A stretch of DNA of 64,000 bases from Candidatus Omnitrophota bacterium (GTDB lineage: Bacteria > Omnitrophota > Gorgyraeia > Zapsychrales > Zapsychraceae), in contig JAGOSC010000005.1 of the NCBI GenBank assembly GCA_018062515.1, positions 880 to 64,879 of the forward strand. Reading direction: 5' to 3'. Below, piece by piece: positions 2,087 through 59,502 of the stretch; the first letter of the stretch is position 1, and the number at the start of each line of letters is the position of its first letter. A model generated the notes under the pieces. It did not search any database. It saw only the letters and a list, made by a program, of their open reading frames with translations, and was not told the DNA's origin. Position numbers and translations under genes: made by a program.

Positions 2087-2114
2087 TTTTAATTTAAAAC
2101 TAAAAGGAGCTATT

Positions 2115-4930: not shown

Positions 4931-4933
4931 TAG

Positions 4934-6774: not shown

Positions 6775-6775
6775 A

Positions 6776-6834
6776 TGACACAAGATACAAAGTCACAAGT
6801 CACATGTGTCATTGTGACCTGTGTCTTGTGTCTG
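6776..6834. repeat. heptamer-built imperfect inverted repeat (GTCACAA-type), copy 2
   Basis: GACACAAGATACAAAGTCACAAGTCACATG-TGTCATTGTGACCTGTGTCTTGTGTC. It lies directly after the iPGM-like stop. Confidence 0.6.
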
Positions 6835-6856
6835 ATATGAAAGGACATAATCACTC

Positions 6857-8083: not shown

Positions 8084-8120
8084 TCAATCCATACAAATTC
8101 TATTTGGAGGATTTTCATAC

Positions 8121-9689: not shown

Positions 9690-9697
9690 AAAAATAA

Positions 9698-9795
9698 CTA
9701 AGTGGTAAGTGGTAAGTGGTAGGTGATAAGTGATATGAAATTTTACTAACCACTCACTGATGACTTACCACATATCACTTACCACTTATCACTCT
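9698..9795. repeat. heptamer-built imperfect inverted repeat (GTGGTAA-type)
   Basis: AAGTGGTAAGTGGTAAGTGGTAGGTGATAAGTGATATG ... ACTTACCACATATCACTTACCACTTATCACT between cimA and valS. It overlaps the ORF-table start of valS (9760). Confidence 0.6.
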
Positions 9796-9798
9796 AAT

Positions 9799-38100: not shown

Positions 38101-41100
38101 ATGGCGAAAAACTTATTCCTTCTGTGGCCATTGATGATGAACAAATAACAGTTGCAAAAAAAGTCAGCGATGAAGAATATGAACTATCCGGAACGAAGGC
38201 GGCTGTTGTCAATGGAGGCCGGGCTTCTTTTTATATTGTATTTGCGCAGCTCAACGGAAAATCAAAAGCGTTCTTAGTCGACAATCCAAAAGGGATAACC
38301 AAAAAATCTGTTCCCACCATGGGCTTGGCTGAAAATAATATTGCTCAAGTTCAGTTTAACCGTGTTAGAGCCAAACTCATCACTGATAATTTAGACGATT
38401 CCGAAATACTTAAAGCTGTACAAAATAAAGAAAATAAAATCATTCGAGCCCTGGCTATTTCCGAAGCCCAAAGGATATATAAAATGGGCGAGAAATATGC
38501 CGCCGAAAGACGCGCCTTTGGACAATCCATCAATAAATTCCCATCTTTAAAACGATTAATGGATGGTATTCAAACGGATGTAGAAAACATCAATGCATCC
38601 CCGAATCCAACCGCCATGCTGGTTGATATAGCCAACCGTGTCCTTCAAATTTTTGCGGCGCGCGGATTTGAAAATAATACGCCGGCTGTAAAAATCTGGC
38701 GTGAGGCACAGGCCCTACATGCCATTGTCACTTATCGGCAATCTTTAACAAAAACAACTCCGGAAAACATATCTCTTGACCCTGAAGAGGTATTTAAAAA
38801 AGGTTCATGGGAAGATTTTGGATTAACACCGGATCAGATTTCTCTAAAATCGAAAATTCGCAATTTTGCGGAAAATATCGTCGCGCCAATGTATGAAGAG
38901 CTTGATCGTGATGGACAGTATCCGCTTTCTATATTGAAGAAAATGGGGGATGCCGGCATTACAAAACCCGGTTATCCAAAAGAAGTTGGCGGTGAAGAAG
39001 CTGACACATTAAGCTGGGCCATCGTCGTCGAGGAACTGGTTAAAGCGGCTCCGGCCTTCGGTATATTTTCCGGTGTTCCGCACACGGCTTCCGTTCCAAT
39101 TCTCAAATCCGGCACTCCCGAACAGAAAGAAATTGTCGCGCAAGTTGTCCGCGGAGAAATTCCTCTATCTTACGGACAGAGCGAACCTCACAGCGGATCG
39201 GACGTTGGCGGAATTAAGACAACGGCTCATTTAACAAAACGTGATGGTGTTGAAGGTTATGTTATTAACGGTGAAAAAATTTGGATTGGAAGCGCGACCG
39301 TAGCTCCGTGGTTGGTATTATTGGCAAAAACAGGCGAGGCTACTGATCGAGATTTAAATAAATTTGCATTTTTCCTAGTCCCGTTTCGGGATCAAGATGG
39401 TAAATTCCAAAAAGGAATTGAAGTTCATGAAATGGATTTATTGGGAATGCGGGGAATTGGCAACAGCCATATCATTATGAAAGATGTATTTATTCCCAAA
39501 GAAAATATATTAGGTGAAGTTGGTAAAGGATTTAAAACCGCTATGCACGCCATGGATAGCGGGCGTATTTTTGTTTCCTCTCGAGGATTGGGCGTGATAA
39601 GCCACGCGGTGGAGAATGCCAAAGAAGCTTTAAAAGAAGCATTGCGAGAAAATCCGAACTTGCCCCACGCTCAAAATTATATTTCTCAGATTGACTTAAT
39701 GGAAGCCGAACGGCTAAGCGTGCGGGCTATGCTGCAAAAAACATCTGACATGAATGACCGAGGCAAACGCATGACTTATGAAACGGCGATCATGAAATGG
39801 ATTGCCGGAGAAGTTGCTGCCGACATTGCTCAGCGTTCCTACGATCTAATTCACACCATCTCATATAATCCATCACGATGGGCGCATTCCGAACGGGTTT
39901 TGCGGGATTCGCGGCAAATTCGTATCGGCGAAGGGACGCCGCAAATTATGCAACGTATCGCTGGTCTTAAAATCCGACGTCAAATGAAAAAAAAGTTAAC
40001 ACATTTATCAAGTGACATTATTTTACAGGATGCCCTAAAACAAATTCTCGACGAAAAAGAAAATGATTCTGTGCCTACCCGTCTGAATATTCTGTTTAAT
40101 ATAGCTCTGGCCGCATACCTCAAAGCGATTAAAGATGGACAATTTGATATTACGCCCGTCGAGCCATATGGCATTGAATTGGATTTGGCTAATTTAGAAG
40201 CCTTGCGTATGCGTGTGAATGATTTTCAAAAAATGCTCACACAAATGGCGCAATCTGGACAACCTTTTCCTTATGGAAATGCTGTTCAGATATTTATGAA
40301 TCAGAAGTATGTCGAAGCTGAGACGATAGTTCATAATATTTTTACACAATTAAGTTTTAAGACCGAATTGGAAGAAATAAAAGACTATGCTATGATCGCT
40401 TCACTGCAAGTCGAAGAGCTTCGCAAACGTTTTAAAGAAACCGGCGGAGCGATCACACGGGAAGAAGCGCAACAAATAGTAAAAGGTGCAAAGCCAGAAG
40501 AGGTTGCAGTTGTCCTTGAGCAAATAGCATATCAGTCAAGCCTTTATGGGCCTGTCAACGATCCTGCCATTAACAGAGTTGATCCAAAAATTTATGAATC
40601 TTTAATTGGAATTCCTGGTCAAGCGCCGTTTGTCCGCGGATTGTTTCCTTCAGTTACGCAGCGCGCTGCTGGCCGATGGCCGACGGTACGACGTTATGGT
40701 TCGTATGGAACTGCGGAAGAATCAAACGCCAATCTTAAAAAACAATTAGAAGCGGGTGTTACTGGATTTAGTATTGCTTTTGATTTACCGACTCAAAATG
40801 GTTATGACACAGGTCATCCTTTAGCTGTTGGAGAAGCTGGCCGCGTCGGTATCGCCATTAACACATTGCAAGATATGGAAGATCTTTTTGATGGACTGCC
40901 TTTAGAGAAAATTAGTACATCAATGACCATTAATCCAACCGCGCCAATTCTTTTTGCCATGTATGTGGCTGCAGCGCGTAAGAAAGGCGTGCCAGACAAA
41001 TTAATTGCCGGAAGCGTTCAAAATGATAGCTTGAAAGAATACACGGCGCGTAATACGTATGTTCTACCTTATAAAGGTATGATGCGCATGACCACAGATG

Positions 41101-44100
41101 TATTTCGTTGGACGAAAGACAATTTGCCGCGATTTAATACGATTACGATTTCTGGTTATCATATCCGTGAATCCAACGTCGATGCGGTTAAAGAAATTGC
41201 TTTTACGATAACGAACGCGCTTCAATATGTCGCCGAATTAAAACGCAAAGGTCTAAGCCGTGATGAAATCGCCGGATCATTGGCCACGATGGCTTGGTTT
41301 ATCAATTTGAAAATGAATACGTTTGAAGAAGTCGGAAAACTTCGCGCACTCCGACGGGTATGGTCGAAAATTGTCCGTGATGGATTAGGCATTAAACCTG
41401 AAAATGTGACTGATCCTAAGCTCAAAGATGTGTATCAAAAAGCAACGAACGCCCGGGTTGCAACCTGGTCGGGTGGAAGCGAAGTCCGGTTACCGTACGC
41501 AACGACACTGAATTTTGCCCGTAACGCTATCCGTGCTTTTAACGCACCGTTAAGCGGCGTTCAAAGTTGGGACGGAGCAGCCTTTGATGAATCCATCGGA
41601 ATACCGACGGATTTTGCTCAAGAAGAAGCTATGCTTCGGCTTTTCGCGGCACAGTCGGAAACAGGCCTTATGGAATTAGATGATCCATTCGGCGGATCAT
41701 ATTTCTTGGAAGCTGAGACAAATCGAATTGAGCAAGGAATTTGGAATGAATTATCTGAATTATCACAAAAAGATTCATTCTTGGATGTTCTCCAATTTAT
41801 GGTCGATGAACGAACGCGCTTAACTGATCAGGACCGAATAGATTTAGAAGGGGGACAACGAAAAATCGTCGGGTACAACATTTCCACCGACGGGGCAGAT
41901 GCTTATCCTCAACCCAAAGCTCGGCCGATGAACACCGAAAATTTCGATGTAAAACAGGGCAAAAGATTAAAGAAAGTTTTGGAAACTCGCGATAATGACG
42001 CTGTACAATCCGCCTTGGATGAACTTGAAAAAGCATTAAAAAATGAAACTGAAAATGTCCTGCCATATATTTTTAAAGCCGTCGAAGTTTACGCTACGGT
42101 TGGAGAGATTAGTGACCGCATGCGACGCATATATGGCGCCTCCGACGGAAAGACTCCATGGAATGCGCAACCTGTTTGGAAAGATTTGAAAGACAAAGAA
42201 TGGACTCCTCCAATACAAGAGAAGCCAGAAATTTTTGATCAAGATATACGGAACTTTATCGAAACACAAAAAAATCTTATTGGGAATAGCTATCAAGAAA
42301 TTTATGACCGAGGGATTGCCCGCGGATATTTCTTGGCTGGCGACATGCCATATGTTAGACATTTGCATGTTGAAGAGCGCCCCGGGGAGTATCCATATAC
42401 ACGCGGAATTATTAAGCAGCGACCAGAAAAATTAAATAACATTAGTGGATATTTATTAAGAGAAGCTGGGATGGATGGAATGCAGGAATTGGCTTTGAGT
42501 TTATTTGCTGCTAAAAAGGAAATTGAAAAAGGAAATACTCCCAGCGAACGTGCAGACATTGCCAATCAAATCCGTATTGTGCTTTCTTCCAGCGATAATT
42601 TTATGGAAGAAACCGCTCGAATATTTTTAGCACGTAGAATGTGGGCTGAAATGCTCAAAGAAATGGGAATCACCGATGAAAATGCATTGCAATTGATCGT
42701 CGGTGTTAAAACCGATGCAACCACATACACGGAAGATAAACATTGGCTGAATATTAGCCGCGGCACACGTCAAGCATATCAAGCTTATTTAGCCGGTGTT
42801 GATCCGCAAGATATTATCATTACCCGTTTTGATGCTCCTTATGGCCATACAGATCAAACTCGATTAGCCGAACAAATTGCCAAAGATACTCTCGATGTAT
42901 TCCGTTATGAATTACCCAAAAAAGTTCAAAATCCTTTAAGCGGAATGTTTGCTTTAGAAGCTAAGATCGAAACAATGGAAGGTGAATTAAAAGCTGAATT
43001 AACAAAACTTGAAGATTTGTCATCTGATAAAAAATCAATATCTATTTCCGCAGAATCTGAAATGAAAGCCCTTATACCTGTTACCAATGTTACTGGATCC
43101 ACGGGTGTTCCAACTTGGTTAACTCCGTCATTAGCGAATTATCTGATCACTTCACTTTTACATTCGCAGGCTGTTCAGCTAGCCAAAGTTACCGCCGGAT
43201 TGACTCCAAAAGTAGGCGAGAATATTAAAACCAGTTCGACGAAATATTTTCCGCCAATGAATACCGAGGCCATGGGTATGAAACTTCTACCGCCATCAGA
43301 ACAAGTCACCATTGATGCCTTAGCCTCTGATTCAGAGGATTTAAGAATTGCAATTGCGGACGCATGGTTCAATCAAGCTGCAAATTTATATACAAAACTT
43401 TTAGGCGCGCTTCATCTTAATAACAGTAATCGTCATATTACAAAACTCCTCAGAGGTTTAGCAGCGGCTAATTTAAGTGTGAATGCTGAACAATTTTCAA
43501 AAATTGCTGAAAAATGGTCAATTATTTCTGAAGGCGATCAATTCACTATTCAGACGGATAATGGATCACAACTGAATATTATCCGTGATACTGATCACCA
43601 AGGGAAAATGGGCATTGAATTGGCGGGAAATGTTTCAGAAATAATGCGGTATGTTTCACAGTATACACTAAAAAATAAAATGACTAAAAAAGATAAATTA
43701 CGTATTCTCGTCGCTAAACCAGGACTTGATGGTCATGATGTCGGTGCACGAACAATCGCCAATGGCTTTCGTGACGCCGGCTTTGATGTAATTTATACGG
43801 GATTGCAAAACACCCCGGAACAAATTGTGGAAACAGCTCGCCAAGAAAATATTGATGTCATTGGGTTAAGCATTCTTTCTAACGCTCATAATTCGATTGG
43901 ACCAAAAGTCGCTAGCCTTTTAAATAAGAATGGAATGGATGATGTTTTTGTCGCCATGGGCGGAATGATTCCTGACGATGATCAGCGTAATTTATTTCGA
44001 AAAAGCGCGGTCAACGCAATCTATATTGCCGGTACAACCATGCAAAAGATTGTTGACGATATCAACCATTGGAATGAATGGCGGGGGAAATCAGATAAAA

Positions 44101-45560
44101 TAAAAATCACAAATGATCATCAGTTTACGGCAACATTATTCGATGGAAGTTCAGTCGAAGTTGTTGTCATCAATAAGGAAATTCCAACAGCTAAACCGGT
44201 CACGGACGTAGAAGAAACGGAAATTCCTCAAACTGCTTTAGCCGTGCCAACAAAACTAGGCCCATTGCATCGATCAAATATTCCCGTCGTTGAAGGCGTT
44301 TGGAGCGATGATCCAGAAATTCGAAACCGTGCTCTACAACACTATGCTTTAGCTGGAGACATATTGTTAGAACAGGTCATAAAAACGAGTCCAGTACTGG
44401 GACGATTTATTATTCCGGTTTCGAATGCCGTTTCTCCTCATATTGAACACGCCACTGTTGCCTCAGCTGGAATTGCTTTAACACCCGAACATTTTGAACA
44501 AGCCTGGGAGGCTAATGGAAACCCTCATCGTTCCAATGTACCGGAAGACGTCCGTGCAGAAGAATTTGAAGTTATAGTAACAATGCCCGATGGAAGTAAG
44601 CGAATTTTGGATATTCTTCGTGATAAAAAGGATGACTTTGAAGCTGGCGATATTGTCCGAAGAAAGATAGACGTCTCACACACGTTGGTTGAAGCATGGA
44701 ATAAAAAAGCTAAAACCAACCCTAAAGCCAAAGATCAAGAAGCAGAATGGTTAAATATGACCATAAAACAAATTCTTAATCCGCCGTTTGCTTCAAATAT
44801 TTTTCCAGCTAATGCGATTGTGATAAAGGTTCAAAACAGAAATAGTGAATTGGACCGAGGTATTATTGAACTTGATCAAGAATTAAATATTTACGTGAAG
44901 GTTCTCGACGTCACCCCATTTAATCAACAAACTGTCGACGGAAAATCATTCATTAAAGCGGATGTCATCGTTAAAGATAAAGAAGAAAACATTCTCATCG
45001 ACAGTATCGTCACAGTCATGAAACCGCTGACCATCGCTCGTCATATTAATGAATACAGTGAAGCGGTGATTCAGCAAGTTGAAGTTTGGACCGACGACAT
45101 TCAAGCGGCTCACAAAGCGATTTCCGCAGCGGCTAAAGATAAAACAAATGGTATTAATGTCGTACTGCCTGTCCGTGACGGAGCGAATGGAACAAAGGTT
45201 TTCTTTACGATGGTGACAATCGAAGGCGGCGTCAAAGTTCTCGTTGAGTTAATTCAAAATCCAAAAGCCGCGGTTGATAACGCTTCGCTCAGCCAATACG
45301 GCGGTATCGACCTTAATCCAGCGCATTTGGATTTGCAAATCAAGCGTGATGGACGAGGAATTCCGCTTCCGGTTAATCAACAGCCAATCATCAATATGCA
45401 TATCGACGGTTTTTATCCGATTATTATTGAAATGACGCCAGTGAATTTGCCGATGTTGCTCGGTTTCGCGGATGAAAATATGCCTGCGGATGAAACAGAT
45501 GATTATTCTCAATCAGAATTAAACGCCAGAGAACCTGAAGATTTAAGTTATTTAAATTAA
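35142..45560 (+). CDS. giant secreted mosaic protein C (3472 aa): signal peptide + shared N-module + AMP-forming acyl-CoA synthetase + acyl-CoA dehydrogenase + methylmalonyl-CoA-mutase-like catalytic region + B12-binding domain + shared C-module
   Basis: GTG start immediately after the B stop. AMP-binding motifs GYGLTEGTS and TGDLGSIDKDGYIKITGRLKD. ACAD YGQSEPHSGSDVGG. Mutase RYGSYGTAEESNANLK...GFSIAFDLPTQNGYD is co-linear with the MCM large subunit. B12 motif RILVAKPGLDGHDVGA (DxHxxG) at ~43700. C-module YGGIDLNPAHLDLQIKRDGRGIPLPVNQQP at 45298-45560. Confidence 0.85.
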   Translation: MIIQFKKFQLKFTYKFLCTVINIAFISTCVLPPSYAQVLSLPQPGTMLNVSPVYTPPMIKGLTIDQENPLHFQFIIDTGNEQYKDNDQLREESTRLIKYFLASLTVPENEMWVNLSPHEKDRIIPDGFGQTEMGRDLLAQDYILKQLTASLIYPEKELGAEFWKKVHDRAWKEFKTKEIPLDTFNKVWIVPEKAVIYEHERSAYVLESHLKVMLEEDYQALISNTSSTSADNQKLKDDNRQLTASIMKEIIIPEIEREVNEGKNFTNLRQIYQSMILATWYKMNLKESLLGQIYVDQNKLIGIDLDDKNVKDKIYAQYIEAFKKGVYNYIKEDYDPDQQKTVPRQYISGGFSTVGKDNATLVDLVGREIIKSSAGYVSADQYKRISKGLKPSGDQFRTDVQLLENGNNGIINADQSMLVKIDDALQKNPSQKVHTVKGYTPAGNPIEDVLTYQDISDQSNQFAHVLKNAGIEKGDRVAVMSPVSGLEMIASLGIWKAGAVRVPFKTQWTSNEIKKYLTQTTPEAMVILNVYYDQHLLSILNEFKDLKVYIISSGETISSTPHVMTFQNSLINQTTDFLNISSDPRDLVQLAISTGTTGESKIVKQTQENFYFSTQEYSEWLDDAPQGPVVSTLPPGTYGSHSILGTVLRGRPLYIVPRLPKNQTTDEYTQTLSETLKRTNAKILFGVPTQFQALAMTGEKFPGLIGLSRGAALRDVKQLFESVTGGRVIEGYGLTEGTSSVTNPINRDKPGTVGIPSKDTTFKVINPSTQKELPIGEEGELVLKGPQVMAGYWEDPVGTKAAFTEDGFLRTGDLGSIDKDGYIKITGRLKDIIISGGDNVIPSEVEKIIKTNAAIEEVTVVGISDPGRFPDDPAFAELVEHWGEVVVAFVVPKKGMNTLNLEPSIREFAKKNLAAYKVPKKVVVLNKLPLLGDLFKIDRQQLIRGDNDNAVLVIPSAIKNIENIKAKLVLNFMINETLRNGLISQIDGEKLIPSVAIDDEQITVAKKVSDEEYELSGTKAAVVNGGRASFYIVFAQLNGKSKAFLVDNPKGITKKSVPTMGLAENNIAQVQFNRVRAKLITDNLDDSEILKAVQNKENKIIRALAISEAQRIYKMGEKYAAERRAFGQSINKFPSLKRLMDGIQTDVENINASPNPTAMLVDIANRVLQIFAARGFENNTPAVKIWREAQALHAIVTYRQSLTKTTPENISLDPEEVFKKGSWEDFGLTPDQISLKSKIRNFAENIVAPMYEELDRDGQYPLSILKKMGDAGITKPGYPKEVGGEEADTLSWAIVVEELVKAAPAFGIFSGVPHTASVPILKSGTPEQKEIVAQVVRGEIPLSYGQSEPHSGSDVGGIKTTAHLTKRDGVEGYVINGEKIWIGSATVAPWLVLLAKTGEATDRDLNKFAFFLVPFRDQDGKFQKGIEVHEMDLLGMRGIGNSHIIMKDVFIPKENILGEVGKGFKTAMHAMDSGRIFVSSRGLGVISHAVENAKEALKEALRENPNLPHAQNYISQIDLMEAERLSVRAMLQKTSDMNDRGKRMTYETAIMKWIAGEVAADIAQRSYDLIHTISYNPSRWAHSERVLRDSRQIRIGEGTPQIMQRIAGLKIRRQMKKKLTHLSSDIILQDALKQILDEKENDSVPTRLNILFNIALAAYLKAIKDGQFDITPVEPYGIELDLANLEALRMRVNDFQKMLTQMAQSGQPFPYGNAVQIFMNQKYVEAETIVHNIFTQLSFKTELEEIKDYAMIASLQVEELRKRFKETGGAITREEAQQIVKGAKPEEVAVVLEQIAYQSSLYGPVNDPAINRVDPKIYESLIGIPGQAPFVRGLFPSVTQRAAGRWPTVRRYGSYGTAEESNANLKKQLEAGVTGFSIAFDLPTQNGYDTGHPLAVGEAGRVGIAINTLQDMEDLFDGLPLEKISTSMTINPTAPILFAMYVAAARKKGVPDKLIAGSVQNDSLKEYTARNTYVLPYKGMMRMTTDVFRWTKDNLPRFNTITISGYHIRESNVDAVKEIAFTITNALQYVAELKRKGLSRDEIAGSLATMAWFINLKMNTFEEVGKLRALRRVWSKIVRDGLGIKPENVTDPKLKDVYQKATNARVATWSGGSEVRLPYATTLNFARNAIRAFNAPLSGVQSWDGAAFDESIGIPTDFAQEEAMLRLFAAQSETGLMELDDPFGGSYFLEAETNRIEQGIWNELSELSQKDSFLDVLQFMVDERTRLTDQDRIDLEGGQRKIVGYNISTDGADAYPQPKARPMNTENFDVKQGKRLKKVLETRDNDAVQSALDELEKALKNETENVLPYIFKAVEVYATVGEISDRMRRIYGASDGKTPWNAQPVWKDLKDKEWTPPIQEKPEIFDQDIRNFIETQKNLIGNSYQEIYDRGIARGYFLAGDMPYVRHLHVEERPGEYPYTRGIIKQRPEKLNNISGYLLREAGMDGMQELALSLFAAKKEIEKGNTPSERADIANQIRIVLSSSDNFMEETARIFLARRMWAEMLKEMGITDENALQLIVGVKTDATTYTEDKHWLNISRGTRQAYQAYLAGVDPQDIIITRFDAPYGHTDQTRLAEQIAKDTLDVFRYELPKKVQNPLSGMFALEAKIETMEGELKAELTKLEDLSSDKKSISISAESEMKALIPVTNVTGSTGVPTWLTPSLANYLITSLLHSQAVQLAKVTAGLTPKVGENIKTSSTKYFPPMNTEAMGMKLLPPSEQVTIDALASDSEDLRIAIADAWFNQAANLYTKLLGALHLNNSNRHITKLLRGLAAANLSVNAEQFSKIAEKWSIISEGDQFTIQTDNGSQLNIIRDTDHQGKMGIELAGNVSEIMRYVSQYTLKNKMTKKDKLRILVAKPGLDGHDVGARTIANGFRDAGFDVIYTGLQNTPEQIVETARQENIDVIGLSILSNAHNSIGPKVASLLNKNGMDDVFVAMGGMIPDDDQRNLFRKSAVNAIYIAGTTMQKIVDDINHWNEWRGKSDKIKITNDHQFTATLFDGSSVEVVVINKEIPTAKPVTDVEETEIPQTALAVPTKLGPLHRSNIPVVEGVWSDDPEIRNRALQHYALAGDILLEQVIKTSPVLGRFIIPVSNAVSPHIEHATVASAGIALTPEHFEQAWEANGNPHRSNVPEDVRAEEFEVIVTMPDGSKRILDILRDKKDDFEAGDIVRRKIDVSHTLVEAWNKKAKTNPKAKDQEAEWLNMTIKQILNPPFASNIFPANAIVIKVQNRNSELDRGIIELDQELNIYVKVLDVTPFNQQTVDGKSFIKADVIVKDKEENILIDSIVTVMKPLTIARHINEYSEAVIQQVEVWTDDIQAAHKAISAAAKDKTNGINVVLPVRDGANGTKVFFTMVTIEGGVKVLVELIQNPKAAVDNASLSQYGGIDLNPAHLDLQIKRDGRGIPLPVNQQPIINMHIDGFYPIIIEMTPVNLPMLLGFADENMPADETDDYSQSELNAREPEDLSYLN

Positions 45561-45566: not shown

Positions 45567-48500
45567 ATGAAAAAGAAAATTTTCCTTATGAAAAAGTTTG
45601 TGTCTATATTAATTCTTTGCGCATTTACAATGAACACCATTGTTCCGCCGAGTTTGGCGCAGAGCATATCGTCAACGATCCTACCGCCGGTAGGTTCAAT
45701 GCTAACCATGACACCATCGTTTGTTCCGATACAAATCAAGGGTCTAACCATCGATCCCGAAAATCCTTTGCATTTTGAATTTATCATCGATACCGGCGAT
45801 TCAAAAATTGTAAACGATGAAGAATTGCGCGCCGAAACAACAAAACTGGTTAAATATTTTCTTACATCGCTGACCGTTCCGGAAGAAGATATGTGGGTCA
45901 ATCTTTCTCCTTATGAAGGAAATCGTATTGTTACCGACGGATTCGGACAAACGCAAATGGGTCAGGATCTCTTAGCGCAAGATTATATTCTAAAACAAAT
46001 CACCGCATCATTAATGTTCCCTGAAAAAGAGTTGGGCAAAAAGTTCTGGGATAAAATTTATCAGAGAGCAGAACAAGAATACGGAACTAAAGATATTCCA
46101 ACGAATACATTTAATAAAGTATGGATCATTCCGGAAAAAGCCACGGTTTATGAGCATGACGGCAGTGTTTTTGTTATCGAAAGCCGTTTAAAGGTTTTAT
46201 TGGAAGAAGATTATTTTGCCCAAAGAAAATCTGAAGGAGCCTCCGTCGATCCAAATAAATCTGTGTATACCGACATCGTTCGAGAAATTTTAATTCCGGA
46301 GATTGAAAAAGAAGTCAATGAAGGACAGCATTTTGCCAAACTGCGTCAAATTTATAATGCGATGATCTTAGCGACTTGGTATAAAACCAATCTGCAAAAA
46401 TCCGTCTTAGGACAAATTTATGTTGATCAAAATAAGTTGGAAGGCATTAACGGCGAGAATAAAAACGCTAAGTCAGATATTTATAATCAATATCTCAAGG
46501 CTTTTAAGGCCGGCGTTTATAACTATATTAAAGAAGACTATGATTCGACAACTCGGTCAACGATTCCCCGACAGTACTTCTCCGGTGGATTTGCCGCTAC
46601 TTCAGATAAAGCGGCATTATCCACCGTAGTTAAGGAATCAAACCTGGGTCAAAACAACACGCCGTTATCCGACGAGGACTCAGCACTCATCGCAGATGCA
46701 TTATCCGCGCGAGGCAAACAGTTTAATACAGATATCCTCCTTAGAGAAGCCGTCTCGGGGATAACTTCCGGCGATGAAGCTATTCTTAGTTCTTTTACTG
46801 AAGATGAAATTGTGTCACGAATTCTAAATACTCCATATGATCCGATAAAAATTGGTCAGCAAATGCGGGCATGGTACGCTGATGGTAACCTCGACGCTGA
46901 TATCTTAAAAGCAACCTTGACCAATTTAAGCCGCCGTGTTGTGTACGTAAAAAGTACAGCTGATTTAAAAGACTATGAAAAAATGAAGCCTTTTTTGATC
47001 AAGACCTGGGCGCTGCTTAAAGAAGCGAATGACTCTCAGTATACCGAAAGCATTTCGATCATTGAGAGAACCATGGCCTACTCCTTATATATTTCGGATC
47101 CAAAATTATTTTATGCCGAACCGATTGAATCCATGGTCGCTGATTTAAGAAAAATTAAAGACAGCACCGCGGATGAACGTATTAAATTTGATGAAGCTTG
47201 GACACTGATTTCCAAACGCTACAGCCAAAAAAATCCGCGAGATATTTTTTATATCGCCCGGGCGATGAAACGTCCCAAGGCCTCAGATATTGTTAAAAGT
47301 TCTTTATTTAAAGATTTCATGGAATTGCGGGATGCCAAAGATCCGCTCGACCCTCAAAAAAATGAACGTTACACGCCGACGGAAAATGAGATTCAAGAGG
47401 CCATGTCGATCGGGTTCAAAGATAAATTAGAAGCCCGTGAATATGTCATTGCCAAACGAGACGCCCAATATGATGACGCATCCGTACTTACGGGAATAGG
47501 GACTTTTGTGGATCCAAAAACCGGAAAAGAGACAAAAGTTATGGTTGTTGCTTTACAAAATGGAAGTGATATTAAGGAATTATTTGAAAGAAATGCCGGT
47601 TTAAACCGCCCGTGGGGATATTGGAAAGCGATCCGCGCTTTTCGTTTGGCGGAATCTACAGAGTATAGAATTCCAATTGTCACTTTTGTTGACACGAAGG
47701 GGGCGGATAACACATTACCGTCGGAAATCGCCAATCAATCGGGCGTGGTTTCCTACGCCATACAAGTTCAACAAGAGCTGACGGTTCCGTTTATTTCCAT
47801 CATCAATATCGACGGCGTAAGTGCTGGAGGCATGGTTGTCACTCAAGGCGGCGCATTATATATGATGGATTATTCGAATCGATATTTAGCTGCTCCGGCA
47901 GGGTCTTTAGATATTATCGGCAAAGCAAAAACGACTATTCCCGTCGCTGAGCAACGCGGCGTGAAAGATACAATCGGAATGCAAATCATTGAAAAAGAAG
48001 TGCAAAGTGTGTGGGGAGATGCTTTTCATGCGGACGCGAAAAGATCATTGGAAGAATTAAAAACCATTTCCGGAATTATCCCTGAAGCGCTCGGTGGTGC
48101 GCATCGATTCCCTGAACTTTCTTATGAAATGATAGGCGATGTCATTCACAATTACTTAAAGGAAAATGCCAACAAAACAGTTGCGCAGCTTAAAGCCCAG
48201 CGTCATGACTTTTTCCGTCGATTAGGTGGAATTCCTGAAAAAGATTTTAGAATCGTCGACGATCAAGATGTCCCAACCTTGACCAAATCCATCATCACAC
48301 CGGATGAATTTGCACAGTTGGTGGAAACTATTCTTGACAATAAACAAAATACCGAACGTATGCTCCATGCGTATCGCCAGTACACTTTTACACTGAAATC
48401 AGCGAAACAAAAAAAAGAGGTTGTCGCTGTATGGATGAAAGTTTTTAGAGCTAACCGCAGCTGGTTTGATAATCGCTGGATGGTCAAAGTTTTAAATGCT

Positions 48501-51500
48501 TCGTTAACAGAATTTGAAAAGAAGGGAACGCAAAATGCTAAAACTCTTAAAGAGGCGATGATCAAGAGTTTCTTTCCGGAACCGCGCAGTATTGCTGATC
48601 GTCTCGAACAATTTGTCGACCGCAAAAAAGATGGAAGTTTGGAGATTATTGAAGAATTAAATGCGAATTTAGCCGAGACACCCATCATCGATTTTGATGA
48701 AACCATTCATGAAGCCTATCCCTTTTTGAAGATTGATGGCCAGGATATTGCGGCCAAGTTTGACCAATTCCGCAAATTAACCGGCTCATTAACCGGCGTT
48801 TGGACCGGTTATGTTAAAATCGGCGGAGTAAAGACGATGCTGGTTTTAAAAGATCCACGCTGGTTGAACGCCAGCGCAACAACGGCCGTCATCGGCGAGA
48901 AAGTGACCCGCGCCTTGGAAGATGTGCGTCAAAAATTTGATAAAACCAAAGAAAAAATTCCCGTGATCATGTTGACGACGGCGAGCGGTGCTCTTCAGCA
49001 AGAAGGCCAGCGCGCTATGGACCCGTTAAATAAAAAACTCGCTGGATTGGTTGAATTGAAGGAACGAAATATTCCCGTCGTGATTTTAGGTGCCTACGAA
49101 GTTTTCGGTGGTGATAGCGCCTCCGACGCGACATATCAAGATGCTGATCTTTTACTATTAGAAAAAGGGACAAGAAAAGGATTCACCGGCCACCCGACGC
49201 TGACCGGAGAAAATGATCGACGTAAGAAAAAAGGTGTTAAAGATACTTCGCAAAATGAGGTTGTGCCATTAACCGTTTTGCCTTTTCCATATCAGACTGA
49301 TCAGTTCTTAGACCGGCTTGGATTTATCGATGGAATTGTGACTGTCGAGCAAGAAACGCCTTTATTACAAGCTTTCTTACAAGACGTGACTAATAAAGAA
49401 CTGACTGTTAAATCCGAAGAAATTAAAGAACTTTTAAAAACCTTTAAAGACAAACGTGAAATGCGAGTAAAGCTTGTACGCGCCTTGGAACGAAAACCAT
49501 TTAAGACGACGTTTCAAAATGGAAATGAGGCTGAAGTTTTTAATCTGCGAAATAAGGCAAGACTATTGATGAATCAGCCAGGCATTGGCTGGCGTTATGA
49601 AAAGCCCGCAACAGGCCAAGAAACGGTGAATTCAGATGAAGCCATGCTGACCAACGTTTATGAAAATGCTGAAACGATGTATCAAAATTTGCCGCAAGAT
49701 ATTGAAAAATTTATGATGAGTACGGCATCGAAAATTAACGGCGGTGAAGCTGTAATGAATGATCAAAAAGCGATTACGGACATGATGTCCTTAATCGGAG
49801 AAATTTATGAAAAAGAAATGGACGGCCTGACGACGAAAAATTATCACAATCATATGCATAATCTTTCTGTCTCATTTGGAAGTTTAATTCTCGCCCAAAA
49901 TGCAAATTTAATTAAAGATAAGAATGATTTGATTATCGTCTTTTTAGGATCATTGTTTCATGATTTTCATGTGCGCGATGTCCGTCCTTTGCGTGAACGC
50001 GGCCCGGCAACGCCCGCCTTGGTTAATGAAACATTAGGTATTGAAGGATCAGGTGGGCAGCTCCCTGATTTATTAGCAATAGATGGATTCGTTTATAAAA
50101 ATCCAGCTATTGCCAATGCGCGTTATGGAGTGGTCGGAACCGATGTTAAAAAATCGGCCCGGGAAATCTATCAAACTTTAACTGGTAATGATGGTTCAAA
50201 TGGAATTTATAATGAAATTGCCGCCATTATACGGCGAACTGATTTTTCATCGGATCTCCCGCCAGCTATCGATAAGTATAAAAACCGTACTTTTGTTGTC
50301 CGCGATTTTATGGATGCAAAGGTTAATGAATGGTCACAAACGAAATCAGAAATATCCGACACTGATTTAACGCAACTCATTAATCAGGTGGAAAAACAAT
50401 ACCAGGATATTTATACTGATATGGCTCGGGACAAAGAATTGACTCCTGTAGGAAAAAGGGAAGTTTCCGAGAAGTGGGTAACACGTCAGCGTAATATTGA
50501 ACTGGCCTTCTTAAATGCTTTAACTAAAGTCAGATCTTCTCGACGATTAAATGTTTACCAAATAGCCAATCGTGTTGAGCTGGCCGATCAATCTGTTGCC
50601 TCGTGGATCGGATCCCCGGATATTGCCAAAAATATCACGTTAGGACTTAAAGAGGAACTGCCTTTTGTCAGCATCGAAGCTAATTATCCCTTATTTTATA
50701 CACCGCAATTATTACCCACACGGGTTTTATCACGCTTAAGAGATCTTCCCCTCAATTTAAGAATTAATTTCTTAAAAAATATGGAATATTTTGCCAGTTA
50801 TAGTACTGATTTCGCTAAAAATCTGAATGATGAGCAGAAAACGAAAATAAATGAATTTGTTTATAAGATGATGTTAAATTCTTTAGGAGAGTGGGACAAG
50901 ATTGAAGAAGATGTCCTTATGGAATTACGACTATATGTAGATGAAGAAGGTCAGATTAAACAACAAAGAATGGATCCTGAAGTAGTGCAGGGACTGAGAA
51001 AATCTATTATCGGAACAGTCTTTAACCTACGTGACATACATTCAATGGTTGCACAAAGAACAGTGAAAAAAATAAACTTGGCAGCAAATCAAACGATCAT
51101 TGAAGAAGGTGATGTCATTAATCACAAGAATTCAGAAGGTCTTTACATTATTATTTCCGGGGAAGTTAAGGTTATTGTCGGTGGAAGTCCTGTGGCAACG
51201 CTTAAGGCGGGGGACCATTTCGGAGAATTGGCCATCATCAGTCGCCTACCGCGCAATGCCACTGTTGTTTCCACTAGTCCTACAGTATTGGTTAAAATGC
51301 CGAGCAGATTTTTACATGGATTAAGATTAGTCAGCGATGAATTTAGTGATGCATTATATGCTGAAGCCAGAGCTAAAACGCGAAAAGGAACATCGATTCT
51401 GCCATATTGGGTTGAATCAGAAATTGTCATGAAAATGGCGCGGTCAAACCAAATATTAAATGAACAATCTAAAATTTTAGCTTGGCAGATGCCACAGTTT

Positions 51501-52088
51501 GTTAGGGGAAATGAAAATAAGAGCGAACGTTTAACACTCCAAAGCGTATATGACCGTTTACCAGCTGCCCTTTATGAATTTGAAAATGATTATCCTGAAA
51601 TAGGACCGATTAAGCTTGTTGGAATTGCCTCTAACGGACCGTCCGTCAGTGTTTATGTGGATCCGATTGACCATAAGTCGATTGTGGTTTTCTCCGATGA
51701 TTTCTTTAAGAGAGACTTGGACAACTTTAATCAACGTATAAAAACGGCTTTGCAGACTGCGATGAATGACGCGGCCATGTTCGCTGATGATGAATCTCCC
51801 AACGCTTTAACCAAAGGTGGTATTGATTTAAATCCCCAGGCGCTGGACCTAAAAATTAAAAATACCGGCACACAAATTCCTTTTCCCGTCGATGAGAACA
51901 TCGAACAGTTTATCGATATCAAAGGATTTTCTCCTGTCATTATTAATATAACCCCGATCCACAATCTTCCGCTTATTTTAGGAATCATTGATGGGAAGAA
52001 TGACCAATCTCCCCAAGTTAAAAGTGATCATTTTCCGTTATATAACGTGAAAGGTCGTTTTGAATCCGTCGAGGATTATCCTTCCTAA
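45567..52088 (+). CDS. giant secreted mosaic protein D (2173 aa): signal peptide + shared N-module + carboxyltransferase alpha (AccA-like) and beta (AccD-like) domains + HD-like domain + cNMP-binding domain + shared C-module
   Basis: ATG 6 nt after the C stop. Signal ...IVPPSLA|QS. AccA-like RIPIVTFVDTKGA...PEALGGAHRFPE. AccD-like VIMLTTASGALQQEGQ...VVILGAYEVFGGDSAS. cNMP block GDHFGELAIISRLPRNATVVS. C-module GGIDLNPQALDLKIKNTGTQIPFPVDEN at 51815-52088. Confidence 0.85.
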   Translation: MKKKIFLMKKFVSILILCAFTMNTIVPPSLAQSISSTILPPVGSMLTMTPSFVPIQIKGLTIDPENPLHFEFIIDTGDSKIVNDEELRAETTKLVKYFLTSLTVPEEDMWVNLSPYEGNRIVTDGFGQTQMGQDLLAQDYILKQITASLMFPEKELGKKFWDKIYQRAEQEYGTKDIPTNTFNKVWIIPEKATVYEHDGSVFVIESRLKVLLEEDYFAQRKSEGASVDPNKSVYTDIVREILIPEIEKEVNEGQHFAKLRQIYNAMILATWYKTNLQKSVLGQIYVDQNKLEGINGENKNAKSDIYNQYLKAFKAGVYNYIKEDYDSTTRSTIPRQYFSGGFAATSDKAALSTVVKESNLGQNNTPLSDEDSALIADALSARGKQFNTDILLREAVSGITSGDEAILSSFTEDEIVSRILNTPYDPIKIGQQMRAWYADGNLDADILKATLTNLSRRVVYVKSTADLKDYEKMKPFLIKTWALLKEANDSQYTESISIIERTMAYSLYISDPKLFYAEPIESMVADLRKIKDSTADERIKFDEAWTLISKRYSQKNPRDIFYIARAMKRPKASDIVKSSLFKDFMELRDAKDPLDPQKNERYTPTENEIQEAMSIGFKDKLEAREYVIAKRDAQYDDASVLTGIGTFVDPKTGKETKVMVVALQNGSDIKELFERNAGLNRPWGYWKAIRAFRLAESTEYRIPIVTFVDTKGADNTLPSEIANQSGVVSYAIQVQQELTVPFISIINIDGVSAGGMVVTQGGALYMMDYSNRYLAAPAGSLDIIGKAKTTIPVAEQRGVKDTIGMQIIEKEVQSVWGDAFHADAKRSLEELKTISGIIPEALGGAHRFPELSYEMIGDVIHNYLKENANKTVAQLKAQRHDFFRRLGGIPEKDFRIVDDQDVPTLTKSIITPDEFAQLVETILDNKQNTERMLHAYRQYTFTLKSAKQKKEVVAVWMKVFRANRSWFDNRWMVKVLNASLTEFEKKGTQNAKTLKEAMIKSFFPEPRSIADRLEQFVDRKKDGSLEIIEELNANLAETPIIDFDETIHEAYPFLKIDGQDIAAKFDQFRKLTGSLTGVWTGYVKIGGVKTMLVLKDPRWLNASATTAVIGEKVTRALEDVRQKFDKTKEKIPVIMLTTASGALQQEGQRAMDPLNKKLAGLVELKERNIPVVILGAYEVFGGDSASDATYQDADLLLLEKGTRKGFTGHPTLTGENDRRKKKGVKDTSQNEVVPLTVLPFPYQTDQFLDRLGFIDGIVTVEQETPLLQAFLQDVTNKELTVKSEEIKELLKTFKDKREMRVKLVRALERKPFKTTFQNGNEAEVFNLRNKARLLMNQPGIGWRYEKPATGQETVNSDEAMLTNVYENAETMYQNLPQDIEKFMMSTASKINGGEAVMNDQKAITDMMSLIGEIYEKEMDGLTTKNYHNHMHNLSVSFGSLILAQNANLIKDKNDLIIVFLGSLFHDFHVRDVRPLRERGPATPALVNETLGIEGSGGQLPDLLAIDGFVYKNPAIANARYGVVGTDVKKSAREIYQTLTGNDGSNGIYNEIAAIIRRTDFSSDLPPAIDKYKNRTFVVRDFMDAKVNEWSQTKSEISDTDLTQLINQVEKQYQDIYTDMARDKELTPVGKREVSEKWVTRQRNIELAFLNALTKVRSSRRLNVYQIANRVELADQSVASWIGSPDIAKNITLGLKEELPFVSIEANYPLFYTPQLLPTRVLSRLRDLPLNLRINFLKNMEYFASYSTDFAKNLNDEQKTKINEFVYKMMLNSLGEWDKIEEDVLMELRLYVDEEGQIKQQRMDPEVVQGLRKSIIGTVFNLRDIHSMVAQRTVKKINLAANQTIIEEGDVINHKNSEGLYIIISGEVKVIVGGSPVATLKAGDHFGELAIISRLPRNATVVSTSPTVLVKMPSRFLHGLRLVSDEFSDALYAEARAKTRKGTSILPYWVESEIVMKMARSNQILNEQSKILAWQMPQFVRGNENKSERLTLQSVYDRLPAALYEFENDYPEIGPIKLVGIASNGPSVSVYVDPIDHKSIVVFSDDFFKRDLDNFNQRIKTALQTAMNDAAMFADDESPNALTKGGIDLNPQALDLKIKNTGTQIPFPVDENIEQFIDIKGFSPVIINITPIHNLPLILGIIDGKNDQSPQVKSDHFPLYNVKGRFESVEDYPS

Positions 52089-53814: not shown

Positions 53815-53908
53815 TACCAAAGATCGTGATAGATTCTGTGTTGACGATGTGTACAATATCAATTATATTATTTACACATATCCACGGTCTAAACGCTTAA
53901 AAAAATTC

Positions 53909-55177
53909 ATGAATAAAATGCGAAAATCAATTTTTATTATGGGCAGAAAATTTACGATTTTATTATCCTTATTTTTAATTTTCTTAACATGTCAAGAAAG
54001 CTGCGTATTCGCTTCACAGGAAGAAGACATCAAGACGGTCGCTGAAAATAATCAGCAATTTGCCTTTGATTTGTATTCTCAAATTAAAAACAATGATGAC
54101 AATCTGTTCTTTTCTCCATTTAGTATTTCGATGGCTTTGGCCATGACCTACGCTGGCGCCCGCGGAAATACAGAAAAGCAAATGGCGGAAACTCTCCATT
54201 TTTCTCTCAACCAAGATGAGTTACATCCGATTTTCCTAAAAATCAACCGGGATTTACAAGCTGATCAAGGGGAAAAAGGTTTTGAACTTTCGATTGCGAA
54301 TGCCCTATGGGGAGAAAAAAGTTTTAAATTTCATAAGTCTTTTATCGATCTAACAAAAAATTATTATGAAGCCGGGTTTAAAGAAGCTGATTTTAAAAAC
54401 AACGCCGAACCCGAACGTCAAACGATCAATAGCTGGGTTGAAAAACAAACCAAAGATAAGATCAAAGACTTACTTCTCCCGAGAGTTTTGACAGAAATAA
54501 CAAAATTGGTTTTAGTAAATGCCATTTACTTTAAAGGACATTGGATATATCCATTTGAGAAAGAATACACACAACCAAGAAAATTTGAATTAATAAGCGG
54601 AGAGCAAATTGAAGTGCCGACGATGAATCAGGAAAGTTCGTATGGATATTCGGAAAATGAAACGCTTCAAATTCTTGAAATGCCTTACAAAGGCGATGAG
54701 CTGTCTATGGTTATTTTTCTTCCTAAAAAAGCGGGCGGAATAAAAGAATTAGAGGCTTCGCTTAAAACAGAGAATGTCCGAAATTGGCTTTCAAAATTAG
54801 AGAAACAAGAAGTCACTGTATTTTTACCAAAATTTACAATGACCAGAGAATTTTCTTTAAAAGAAAACTTTGAATCACTCGGAATGACCGATGCGTTTAA
54901 TCCATACGCGGCTGATTTTTCCGGTATGTCTCCGCTAGCCTTAGATACAGAATATCATTTATGCATATCGGAAATAATTCATAAAGCCTTTGTGGATGTG
55001 AATGAAGAAGGTACTGAGGCTGCTGCCGCGACCGCTGTTGTCATGGTCAAGATGACTGCCGCAGCCGTAGAACCAAAACCTATTTTTAACGCTGACCATC
55101 CGTTTATTTTTATTATTCGTGATAAGATTTCCGATAATATTTTATTTATCGGCCGGGTAATGGACCCTTTAAAATAA
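53909..55177 (+). CDS. serpin (serine protease inhibitor), secreted
   Basis: Serpin core NAIYFKGHWIYPF. Reactive-centre-loop hinge EEGTEAAAATAVVM. C-terminal signature HPFIFIIRDKISDNILFIGRVMDP. Signal peptide after M at 53909 (KFTILLSLFLIFLTCQESCVFA). The upstream in-frame 53849 start is unlikely. Confidence 0.85.
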   Translation: MNKMRKSIFIMGRKFTILLSLFLIFLTCQESCVFASQEEDIKTVAENNQQFAFDLYSQIKNNDDNLFFSPFSISMALAMTYAGARGNTEKQMAETLHFSLNQDELHPIFLKINRDLQADQGEKGFELSIANALWGEKSFKFHKSFIDLTKNYYEAGFKEADFKNNAEPERQTINSWVEKQTKDKIKDLLLPRVLTEITKLVLVNAIYFKGHWIYPFEKEYTQPRKFELISGEQIEVPTMNQESSYGYSENETLQILEMPYKGDELSMVIFLPKKAGGIKELEASLKTENVRNWLSKLEKQEVTVFLPKFTMTREFSLKENFESLGMTDAFNPYAADFSGMSPLALDTEYHLCISEIIHKAFVDVNEEGTEAAAATAVVMVKMTAAAVEPKPIFNADHPFIFIIRDKISDNILFIGRVMDPLK

Positions 55178-57744: not shown

Positions 57745-59502
57745 TTGATTAAAAATTTACTAAAGGATACGTCAGCCAAATTCATTCATATTTCCGCATT
57801 AATGATCATTGGCCTCATTATCTATGCGAATTCACTCCATGGTGAATTTATAGCTGATGATTTTGGTTCCATTCTCGCGCACGCGAAAGCACTTTCAACG
57901 TTTAATCTTATTGAACTTTGGCAAGCCTACAGCACACGTCTCATCGGAGGCCTGACTTTCGCGATTAATTATCAGCTTAGCCATGAAGATGTGCTTAGTT
58001 ATCATTTTTTTAATGTCATGATACATATCCTCAATGCCGTCCTGTTTTATCATTTTATTCTGCAGATATTCACAACACCCGTCGGGAAAAAATCATCAAT
58101 AGTCGATCATGCCGGCGGCGTAGCTTTCTTAAGCGCGGTTTTATTCCTTGTCCATCCAATCCAGAGCCAAGCGGTGGCTTACATCGTCCAGAGATATATT
58201 TCGCTGGCGACTTCTTTATGCCTGGCATCAATCTTGTTTTATGGGAAAGCCCGATTGATGGGAGATAAAAAATATTATTTTATTTCATTTCTATTTTTGG
58301 TTTTCGCCATGTTCACCAAAGAGTCGGCATACCCATTTTTCATTTTAATTATTTTGTACGATATTATTTTCTGGGGAAAGACAACGGCTTCACTAAAAAG
58401 GGTAGGGGCTTACGGGCTTTCGGCGCTGCTTTTTATTAGTTATATGCTTCGGTTGTCAACGTCTCGCGTTGAACAAAATCTTTTCGTGGATTATCCATCC
58501 TCTTCCATGCCCAGCCTTTGGAATCTTTTTTTAACTCAACTGAATGTTCTACGCACATATTTCCGTCTGCTTATTTTGCCCTATAAACAATCCTATTCCT
58601 ACGACTATAACATTGTTTCTCATTTGGATTTGAACACTTTGGTTTCGATTATTTTATTGTCATCCATTGGTATTCTGGCTGTATATCTATATAAGAAAAA
58701 TAAATTAATTCCGTTTTTTACTATTCTTTGGTATTTTTTAACGCTTTCGATTCATGCTTTATTTGTGATCGTTTATGGCCAAAACGGCGACGGGTTACTA
58801 AACGATCATTGGCTATATTTACCCACGGCCGGTTTCGCTTTATTTATTGTTTATACTCTGGTCGACTTGGTTAACATTAAAAATGCACGGCGAATACTGT
58901 TTATGGTCCTGATTGTTTTTTGTGTACTGACATTCCAACGGAATAAAGTCTGGCGGTCCAGTACTACATTATGGGAAAATGTCGTCAAGAATAACCCGGA
59001 TCGTTTTTACCATACTCTGGGGCTGGGAGGAAGTTATCAAGCGAAAGGTTTAACGGAAAAAGCTTATTCAGTCTATACAGAAGCATTATATCAGCATCGA
59101 TTCGAATCGATTAAAGACATGTTGCCCGCCCAACAGTTTTACATGGCGCAAATGTATTTTAATTTAGGATTAGCGGCAAATGGTCTGGGAAAAAAAGATG
59201 AATTTATTTCATCATTACATGCGGCCGTAGCTATTGCCCCGAAAGAACCTTTCTACACGTACCATTTAGGAATAGCCTATTATCAGTTATCCATACCGGA
59301 AAAAGCGATTTTCTACTTAAATCAGGTTGAAAAAAGATTTCAAAACGCCCCCTATTTGCATTATTATCTAGGCTCCGCGTATCTCCAAATAAACAACAAA
59401 GTTTTAGCGAAAGAACATTTGGACCACGCTTTGACCTTATTCCATGCGGCGGGAGATGTGGTCAAAGAGCAAGAGGTGGAAGCGATGGTCAAAAAACTAT
59501 AA
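57745..59502 (+). CDS. GT-C fold membrane glycosyltransferase-like protein with C-terminal TPR repeats (PMT_2/TMTC-like)
   Basis: TTG start in the ORF table; a downstream ATG at ~57806 is also possible. Acidic loop motif EFIADDF after TM1, ~10 TM segments, and C-terminal TPRs (YHTLGLGGSYQAKGLTEKAYSVY...). Confidence 0.5.
   Translation: MIKNLLKDTSAKFIHISALMIIGLIIYANSLHGEFIADDFGSILAHAKALSTFNLIELWQAYSTRLIGGLTFAINYQLSHEDVLSYHFFNVMIHILNAVLFYHFILQIFTTPVGKKSSIVDHAGGVAFLSAVLFLVHPIQSQAVAYIVQRYISLATSLCLASILFYGKARLMGDKKYYFISFLFLVFAMFTKESAYPFFILIILYDIIFWGKTTASLKRVGAYGLSALLFISYMLRLSTSRVEQNLFVDYPSSSMPSLWNLFLTQLNVLRTYFRLLILPYKQSYSYDYNIVSHLDLNTLVSIILLSSIGILAVYLYKKNKLIPFFTILWYFLTLSIHALFVIVYGQNGDGLLNDHWLYLPTAGFALFIVYTLVDLVNIKNARRILFMVLIVFCVLTFQRNKVWRSSTTLWENVVKNNPDRFYHTLGLGGSYQAKGLTEKAYSVYTEALYQHRFESIKDMLPAQQFYMAQMYFNLGLAANGLGKKDEFISSLHAAVAIAPKEPFYTYHLGIAYYQLSIPEKAIFYLNQVEKRFQNAPYLHYYLGSAYLQINNKVLAKEHLDHALTLFHAAGDVVKEQEVEAMVKKL

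Follow-up and report, generated by a model that had tools for sequence, protein, structure and literature searches.

Gene D (45567–52088, + strand) is an intact open reading frame (ORF) encoding 2173 amino acids (aa), and is the last of four adjacent giant multi-enzyme ORFs in a 64-kb segment of a Candidatus Omnitrophota chromosome, the whole of which is referred to here as the window. We found that aa 1356–2075 of its product form, to judge from comparison with related proteins, a portable cassette that is evolutionarily separate from the carboxyltransferase pair encoded upstream in the same gene. The cassette consists of an unannotated all-helical domain resembling class I cyclic-nucleotide phosphodiesterases (PDEs), a cyclic-nucleotide-binding (CNB) domain and a tail domain. 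We favour, with moderate confidence, the reading that it is a self-contained phosphodiesterase module that senses cyclic nucleoside monophosphates (cNMPs), and that it is one of many enzymes carried by the signal-peptide-bearing multi-enzyme proteins of Omnitrophota.

The helical, PDE-like domain (aa 1356–1810; 49632–50996, +) represents an unannotated family of ~455 aa predicted to fall in the HD/PDEase superfamily. We built the family from relatives of aa 1400–1830. A word-indexed homologue search with this region returned 4 relatives, and an exhaustive profile search of 1.84 billion representatives recovered 48 family members at E<1e-10, most of which lie within proteins of 1,000–7,500 aa. 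Alignment of 28 of these members (alignment A3; 21–49% identity to gene D) revealed that the most conserved portion of the domain is a His/Asp-rich block, which begins with YHNHMHNLSVSF at nucleotide (nt) 49842 (aa 1426) and continues with LFHDFHVRDVRP at nt 49953 (aa 1463). A first-pass annotation of this DNA had pointed to such a block at ~49845–49990; the block is real, and by this alignment its conservation is far beyond chance. Residues invariant in all 28 members include Y1426, H1427, H1431, H1465, D1466, R1640, D1674 and E1697, and those that are nearly invariant include F1467, R1470, E1488, T1489, R1557, T1558, D1559 and E1671. When AlphaFold2 (AF2) was run on alignment A3 it gave a confident all-helical model (pLDDT 92.4, pTM 0.92), compared with a pLDDT of 68.7 for an earlier model from 5 sequences.

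The conserved residues fall into motifs that can be compared with those of PDEs. Motif I, YHNHMH (49842–49859, +; Y1426, H1427, N1428 and H1431), aligned with Y159-H160-N161...H164 of PDE4D in both HMMER and hhalign, and motif II, the 'HD' dyad H1465-D1466 (49959–49964, +), aligned with H200-D201. The numbering of the corresponding PDE4D2 residues was checked against the PDE4D sequence; we take H160 to be the general acid and H164, H200 and D201 to be metal ligands. Motif I reads YHNxxH, with its Tyr and both His invariant in the 28 sequences, and this is the version of the motif that typifies class I PDEs. Further along the domain, IRRTDF (aa 1555–1560; 50229–50246, +) aligned at low confidence with the PDE 'ILATD' motif. 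ELADQS (50577–50594, +), in which E1671 is near-invariant and D1674 invariant, is a candidate for the last acidic metal ligand, the analogue for this role being the Asp of the PDE 'CADLS' motif, with which ELADQS gave no significant alignment. An H...HD...D ligand pattern on an all-α fold can therefore be traced through the invariant H1431, H1465-D1466 and D1674, with D1559 near-invariant.

Profile, fold, Pfam and profile–profile comparisons converge, though none of them strongly, on an affinity of this domain with class I PDEs. Class I PDEs accounted for 58 of the 60 best matches of the A3 family profile to Protein Data Bank (PDB) sequences, with PDE7A the best (E=0.011) and PDE1B, PDE10A, PDE2A and PDE8A among the others; these alignments centre on YHNxxH...HD, with a weaker correspondence of IRRTD to 'ILATD'. 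Foldseek comparison of the AF2 model with the PDB placed PDE10A, PDE4D or TbrPDEB1 in 48 of the 50 top matches. In a Pfam scan of the 28 members with a limit of E≤10, PDEase_I was the sole recurrent family (8/28, best E=0.0015), followed by HD (3), HD-CE (1) and YfbR-like (1), all else being singletons; the PDEase_I matches cover profile positions 1–47 only and score at most 18.8 bits (threshold 24.8). We also compared the family with a profile of five PDE catalytic domains (PDE4D, PDE10A, PDE5A, PDE9A and PDE2A, each confirmed to match a database or PDB entry exactly), and hhalign returned a match with Prob 70.8% and P=3.8e-5 over 61 columns. The match to PDE4D alone was weak (Prob 7.7%), global hhalign was uninformative, and a search with PDE4D as the query recovered PDE4D orthologues and nothing else. 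Relaxed alignments placed NARY on PDE 'LAxxY' and IRRTDF on 'ILATD', with the order kept, at low confidence.

The predicted all-helical build and the order of motifs (YHNxxH, HD and then, less securely, a later xTD) are also found in the class I enzymes PDE4D, PDE10A and PDE7A, and the distance from YHNxxH to HD is about 34 residues in gene D and 36 in PDE4D. However, the gene D domain is ~100 residues longer than a class I catalytic domain and, unlike class I PDEs, which are textbook eukaryotic enzymes, it is bacterial, occurs in signal-peptide-led proteins and is embedded in giant fusions. Standard annotation passes over it: Pfam and NCBIfam made no HD or PDE call over threshold on either gene D or the isolated region, phmmer of the region against the PDB gave CNB matches only, and two 'bridge' proteins (P0082 and P0059) had no PDB matches. 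The first-pass annotation had proposed an HD metal-dependent phosphohydrolase fold. What stands of this proposal is a predicted metal site of the HD/PDEase superfamily in a class-I-PDE-like setting; the Pfam HD model (PF01966) on which it was to be checked has no match in gene D at any E≤10 and reaches only 3 of the 28 relatives, all sub-threshold (best E=0.048). Together, these results are consistent, if weakly so, with an unannotated branch of the HD/PDEase superfamily that is closest to class I PDEs but lies outside PF00233, and we call it PDE-like for this reason.

The domain that follows, a CNB domain of the CAP family (aa 1810–1940; 50994–51386, +), was recognized by Pfam, by PDB matches and by alignment of its phosphate-binding cassette (PBC). 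The Pfam cNMP_binding model (PF00027) matched aa 1837–1917 (nt 51075–51317) with E=1.7e-12 and 47.6 bits, above the gathering cut-off of 27.5 bits, which confirms the earlier placement of a cNMP-binding domain at ~51060–51310; within this region, EEGDVINH begins at nt 51102 and PRNATVVS finishes at nt 51272. A phmmer search of the PDB matched it to CNB domains from PKG and PKA-R (E=1e-17 to 1e-8). The PBC, FGELAIISRLPRNAT (51219–51263, +), follows the pattern G-E-[LIM]-A ... R-[ASTN]-A and retains G1886, E1887, R1896 and A1898; in a PBC the Gly, Glu, Arg and Ala make the ribose-phosphate contacts. The G-E...R-x-A cassette is kept in 11 of 13 aligned relatives. By these matches, the CNB domain of gene D is genuine and its PBC canonical and intact. 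The first-pass annotation had proposed reading a preference for cAMP or cGMP from the PBC residues, but the sequence points to neither: the PBC Arg is followed by Asn, where PKA has Ala and PKG has Thr/Ser. In the gene D subclade the PBC reads R-N-A-T, and others read RTAT, RAAT or RGAT. In an AF2 model of aa 1400–1978, the strands and helices were predicted in the order expected of a CNB domain (an eight-stranded β-barrel with a short PBC helix, then C-terminal hinge/lid helices), with a pLDDT there of just 50–76. A reading of the gene as part of a Pycsar defence system was rejected: the PADLOC matches cover the shared CNB domain only, and there is neither a TIR domain nor a cyclase.

Scanning the retrieved proteins with hidden Markov models of the PDE-like domain, the CNB domain and the N- and C-terminal modules that frame gene D (described below) revealed how the cassette is distributed. 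Of 32 full-length representatives, 10 (gene D and proteins P0002, P0003, P0006, P0007, P0009, P0011, P0012, P0013 and P0025) have a CNB domain directly after the PDE-like domain, as does the fragment P0045. Two of these, P0002 and P0003, are 597-aa proteins made of a signal peptide, the PDE-like domain and the CNB domain only, with no N- or C-module and no carboxyltransferase; the P0002 gene is located among housekeeping genes. P0009 consists of the N-module, the cassette and the C-module and nothing more, P0006 carries an additional adenylate kinase and phosphoglycerate kinase, and P0011 has an adenosine-deaminase-like segment beside the PDE-like and CNB domains. BLAST alignment of gene D with P0006 and P0013 recovered blocks of aa 1356–2085 and aa 1357–2048, respectively; otherwise, the N- and C-modules alone align. 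The similar position of the cassette in P0006 had suggested that this protein might share the gene D carboxyltransferase, and this was rejected, as BLAST found no similarity upstream of aa 1356 except the N-module. The unannotated tail domain of ~130 aa (aa 1943–2075; 51393–51791, +), for which Pfam gave no match, is conserved only in P0006, P0009 and P0013, cassette proteins that have the N- and C-modules.

The reciprocal arrangement was found in another Omnitrophota protein, encoded at locus L011, which contains a block 45.7% identical over 879 aa to aa 476–1346 of gene D. Here the carboxyltransferase block is separated from the C-module by ~90 residues, and neither a PDE-like nor a CNB domain is present between them. 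Because the cassette occurs without the carboxyltransferase and the carboxyltransferase without the cassette, the two are independent modules that in gene D happen to lie next to each other; and because the CNB domain lies next to the PDE-like domain in carboxyltransferase-free proteins, the PDE-like domain is its natural partner. The L011 protein itself (1–9912 of its locus) has at least 3303 aa and is cut by the locus edge, and it combines mutase-like, B12-binding and carboxyltransferase parts. The methylmalonyl-CoA-mutase-like, B12-binding and carboxyltransferase parts thus reside in one polypeptide in L011 and are split between genes C and D in the window.

Fusion partners of the PDE-like domain that act on purine nucleotides include adenylate kinase (P0006), adenosine/AMP deaminase-like domains (P0011 and P0022) and LOG/Lysine_decarbox (P0022), which suggests a purine-nucleotide theme. 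A different pairing was seen in two C-module proteins, P0100 (aa ~1150–1720) and P0147 (aa ~1–550), in which the CNB domain is preceded by another His/Asp-rich domain (EGHDxGYS ... HGT ... HHxGYP ... ALDR). This domain is HD-GYP-like by eye and matched neither Pfam nor the PDE-like profile; it may represent a second kind of HD-type and CNB pairing.

These features suggest how the cassette could work. By analogy with PDEs, H1431, H1465, D1466 and a late Asp (D1674 and/or D1559) would form a two-metal hydrolytic site, with H1427 as the putative proton donor, and the PDE-like domain would hydrolyse a cyclic nucleotide to its 5'-monophosphate. The C-terminal CNB domain would bind the same or a related cNMP and tune turnover by the PDE-like domain allosterically. 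The cassette would act alone and not as a switch for the carboxyltransferase. A 5'-monophosphate product would fit the fusions to adenylate kinase, deaminase-like and LOG domains, although this support is indirect.

Several observations weigh against this reading. No single measure of homology to PDEs is strong. Gene D has no match to PDEase_I (PF00233) and every Pfam match in the family is sub-threshold. The top Foldseek match has a probability of 0.95, yet E-values are 0.07 or higher, TM-scores 0.19–0.53 and root-mean-square deviations 10–17 Å; the hhalign match to the five-PDE profile spans no more than its 61 columns, and PDE similarity past the first ~130 residues was not demonstrable. 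The PROSITE class I PDE signature is H-D-[LIVMFY]-x-H-x-[AG], from which gene D departs by reading H-D-F-H-V-R-D, with the second His of HDFHVR one position early and not invariant (Gln in P0001). The CNB domain is optional, as 22 of the 32 full-length family members are without it, and the PBC is degenerate in P0002 and P0025. Pycsar effectors, which bind cCMP/cUMP, have CNB domains similar to that of gene D, and bacterial CNB-fold domains are able to bind other ligands. Finally, no nucleotide cyclase is encoded within the 64-kb window.

As an alternative, the helical domain could be an HD-superfamily phosphohydrolase whose substrate is non-cyclic (candidates are nucleoside mono- and triphosphates, alarmones and 2',3'-cyclic or linear dinucleotides); the CNB domain would then gate its activity rather than sense the substrate class. 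Individual family members do match HD, HD-CE and the YfbR-like 5'-deoxynucleotidase family weakly, the similarity to PDEs is limited to metal motifs common to the HD clan, and adenylate kinase, deaminase and LOG partners would suit any purine-nucleotide substrate. However, PDEase_I was matched about three times as often as HD, the YHNxxH first motif is typical of class I PDEs, and sequence and fold searches of the PDB gave PDEs almost exclusively and no other HD enzymes; we regard a non-cyclic substrate as plausible but less likely than a cyclic one. A further suggestion is that the cassette is not catalytic at all, and that a degenerate helical scaffold and a CNB fold binding a non-nucleotide, or nothing, serve in the assembly of giant proteins. 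Catalysis and binding are so far predicted from sequence, some members have a degenerate PBC, and the family is so far confined to poorly understood giant proteins; yet invariance of His, Asp and Glu residues at 21–49% identity is an active-site signature and the gene D PBC keeps its Gly, Glu, Arg and Ala, which makes a pure scaffold improbable.

The first-pass annotation had itself offered another explanation, namely allosteric switching by the CNB domain, which would place the gene D carboxyltransferase under the control of cAMP, cGMP or another nucleotide. The two share one polypeptide, so that intramolecular coupling could occur. Against this, the 455-aa PDE-like domain stands between them, the CNB domain is contiguous with the PDE-like domain in every case seen, the cassette is found alone or with unrelated cargo, and the carboxyltransferase block is found without the cassette. 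In view of the L011 protein and the carboxyltransferase-free cassette proteins, we consider a switch of this kind unlikely. The cNMP-sensing phosphodiesterase module remains the reading that we prefer.

Known enzymes offer partial parallels to such a module. GAF domains regulate PDE2, PDE5 and PDE10 allosterically, and the GAF-regulated PDEs (PDE2, PDE5, PDE6, PDE10 and PDE11) resemble the cassette in joining a cyclic-nucleotide sensor in cis to a PDE catalytic domain; their GAF sensor is N-terminal to the catalytic domain, whereas gene D has a CAP-type CNB sensor C-terminal to it. In Dictyostelium GbpA/GbpB (PdeD/PdeE), CNB domains are fused to a cNMP phosphodiesterase and activate it, but these are eukaryotic, cytosolic enzymes of the class II metallo-β-lactamase fold, in contrast to the HD/PDEase fold predicted for the cassette. 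Periplasmic CpdP of Vibrio fischeri and PdsA of Dictyostelium are exported cNMP phosphodiesterases that serve in scavenging or signal removal. The cassette would share with them a signal peptide, to go by its N-terminus, and a presumed extracellular or periplasmic action on cyclic nucleotides; unlike gene D, CpdP and PdsA belong to class II and have no CNB sensor.

Gene D and most of its complete relatives begin with signal-peptide-like sequences, as do the stand-alone cassette proteins, and on the strength of these N-termini the cassette may have a periplasmic or cell-surface location, with a ligand that possibly comes from other cells, as the first-pass annotation had also suggested. Omnitrophota are largely host-dependent nanobacteria. 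A more speculative extension, which we think rather unlikely, is that Omnitrophota export a previously unrecognized bacterial offshoot of the class I PDE lineage, equipped with its own CNB sensor, which intercepts or scavenges cyclic nucleotides of a partner or host outside the cytoplasm, and that the resulting 5'-monophosphate feeds the fused purine-salvage enzymes (deaminase, LOG and adenylate kinase) of sister proteins.

The carboxyltransferase block of gene D (aa 476–1346; 46992–49604, +) was delimited by Pfam and by its similarity to the L011 block. The AccA- and AccD-like halves described in the first-pass annotation are both present: the AccA-like half (aa 635–887; 47469–48227, +) matched Pfam ACCA with E=2.4e-36 and 125.9 bits (cut-off 23), and the AccD-like half (aa 1041–1272; 48687–49382, +) matched TIGR00515 with E=1e-10 and, over aa 1076–1171, Pfam Carboxyl_trans with E=4.8e-5 and 22.6 bits (cut-off 22.3). 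Family profiles thus recognize both crotonase-fold halves, α-like and β-like. Gene D scores far below the NCBIfam equivalog cut-offs for accA and accD (300–357 bits), so we describe the protein as a relative of AccA/AccD and not as an orthologue.

Gene D follows gene A (22019–29941), gene B (29958–35141) and gene C (35142–45560), giant multi-enzyme ORFs from the same ORF list, all on the + strand with 0–16 nt between consecutive ORFs; the four products have 1.7–3.5 kaa (thousand aa), and that of gene D is identical to a protein on a public Logan contig. As far as their sequences indicate, A–D are each built as a signal peptide, an N-module, a string of independent enzymes and a C-module. In gene D, the signal-peptide-like N-terminus (aa 1–32, ...PPSLA/QS) and the N-module, which extends to ~aa 345, occupy 45567–46601 (+). 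The N-module (~340 aa) is common to A–D, with 53–59% identity among the four, and at least 555 relatives of it were retrieved, almost all from Candidatus Omnitrophota metagenome-assembled genomes, with many per genome; it had no Pfam or PDB match. The C-module (GGIDLNPQALDLKIKNTG...PVIINITPIHNLPLILG in gene D; 51816–52007, +) is a segment of ~70 aa with the pattern GGIDLNPxxLDLxIKRDGxGIPLP... that closes each of A–D and, in a representative search, stands at the extreme C terminus of more than 100 proteins; it had no Pfam match. Between these modules, gene A carries HpcH/citrate-lyase-like, MaoC and Zn-ADH-type domains, gene B two acyl-CoA dehydrogenases, gene C an acyl-CoA synthetase, an acyl-CoA dehydrogenase, a methylmalonyl-CoA mutase and a B12-binding domain, and gene D the AccA-like and AccD-like halves followed by the cassette. 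The N-termini of all four are signal-peptide-like, that of gene D being hydrophobic, and no internal transmembrane helix was seen in gene D. ATP-, CoA- and B12-dependent enzymes of A–D would thus stand behind a Sec-type signal peptide.

Passages of two bioRxiv preprints (10.64898/2026.06.07.730766; 10.1101/2023.11.21.568195) describe 'multi-enzyme metabolic' giant proteins of Omnitrophota in which unrelated enzymes are tiled, with a signal peptide and/or transmembrane helices. The giants in these passages have at least 10 kaa, compared with 1.7–3.5 kaa for A–D, and A–D differ from them in being framed by a specific N-module and C-module. The searched passages of the two preprints make no mention of phosphodiesterase, cyclic-nucleotide or carboxyltransferase content.

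The window has a G+C content of 33–43% when measured in 2-kb pieces, and its housekeeping genes include those for homoserine dehydrogenase, a threonine synthase-like PALP enzyme, aspartokinase and ValRS, among others. Within 930–2086, a tyrosine recombinase gene of the phage-integrase family ends directly beside tRNA-Pro(GGG) (2013–2086), and G+C content is lower in the first 2 kb (0.33); an integrated element may have its boundary here. A full-length bacterial serpin whose N terminus includes a hydrophobic segment is encoded immediately downstream of the giant genes (53849–55177; PF00079, E=2.8e-127). At 59502–61166 is an HTTM/vitamin-K-dependent γ-carboxylase-like protein with a lumenal domain (PF05090 and PF22777), which is unusual in bacteria. 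In the genome that encodes the stand-alone cassette protein P0002, locus L001 contains an intein-interrupted RtcB RNA ligase gene (4680–7676) adjoining archease.

What is new here, we infer, is a cassette that couples a CNB domain to a class-I-PDE-like domain of an unannotated family and is shuffled among signal-peptide-bearing multi-enzyme proteins of Omnitrophota, with catalysis and allostery predicted for it. If this is true, it would give a functional clue to a ~450-aa family that Pfam and NCBIfam do not detect, and a conserved bacterial relative of class I PDEs would be relevant to how that lineage arose. A CNB sensor acting in cis would add a third way of coupling cNMP sensing to cNMP degradation, beside the GAF-PDE and the CNB–class II PDE arrangements. 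The multi-enzyme proteins of Omnitrophota would be assembled from shuffled, self-contained cassettes, and domain neighbours in these polypeptides should in that case not be taken for pairs of regulator and target. Their signal peptides also raise the question of where the cofactor- and nucleotide-dependent enzymes of these episymbiont-like bacteria work.

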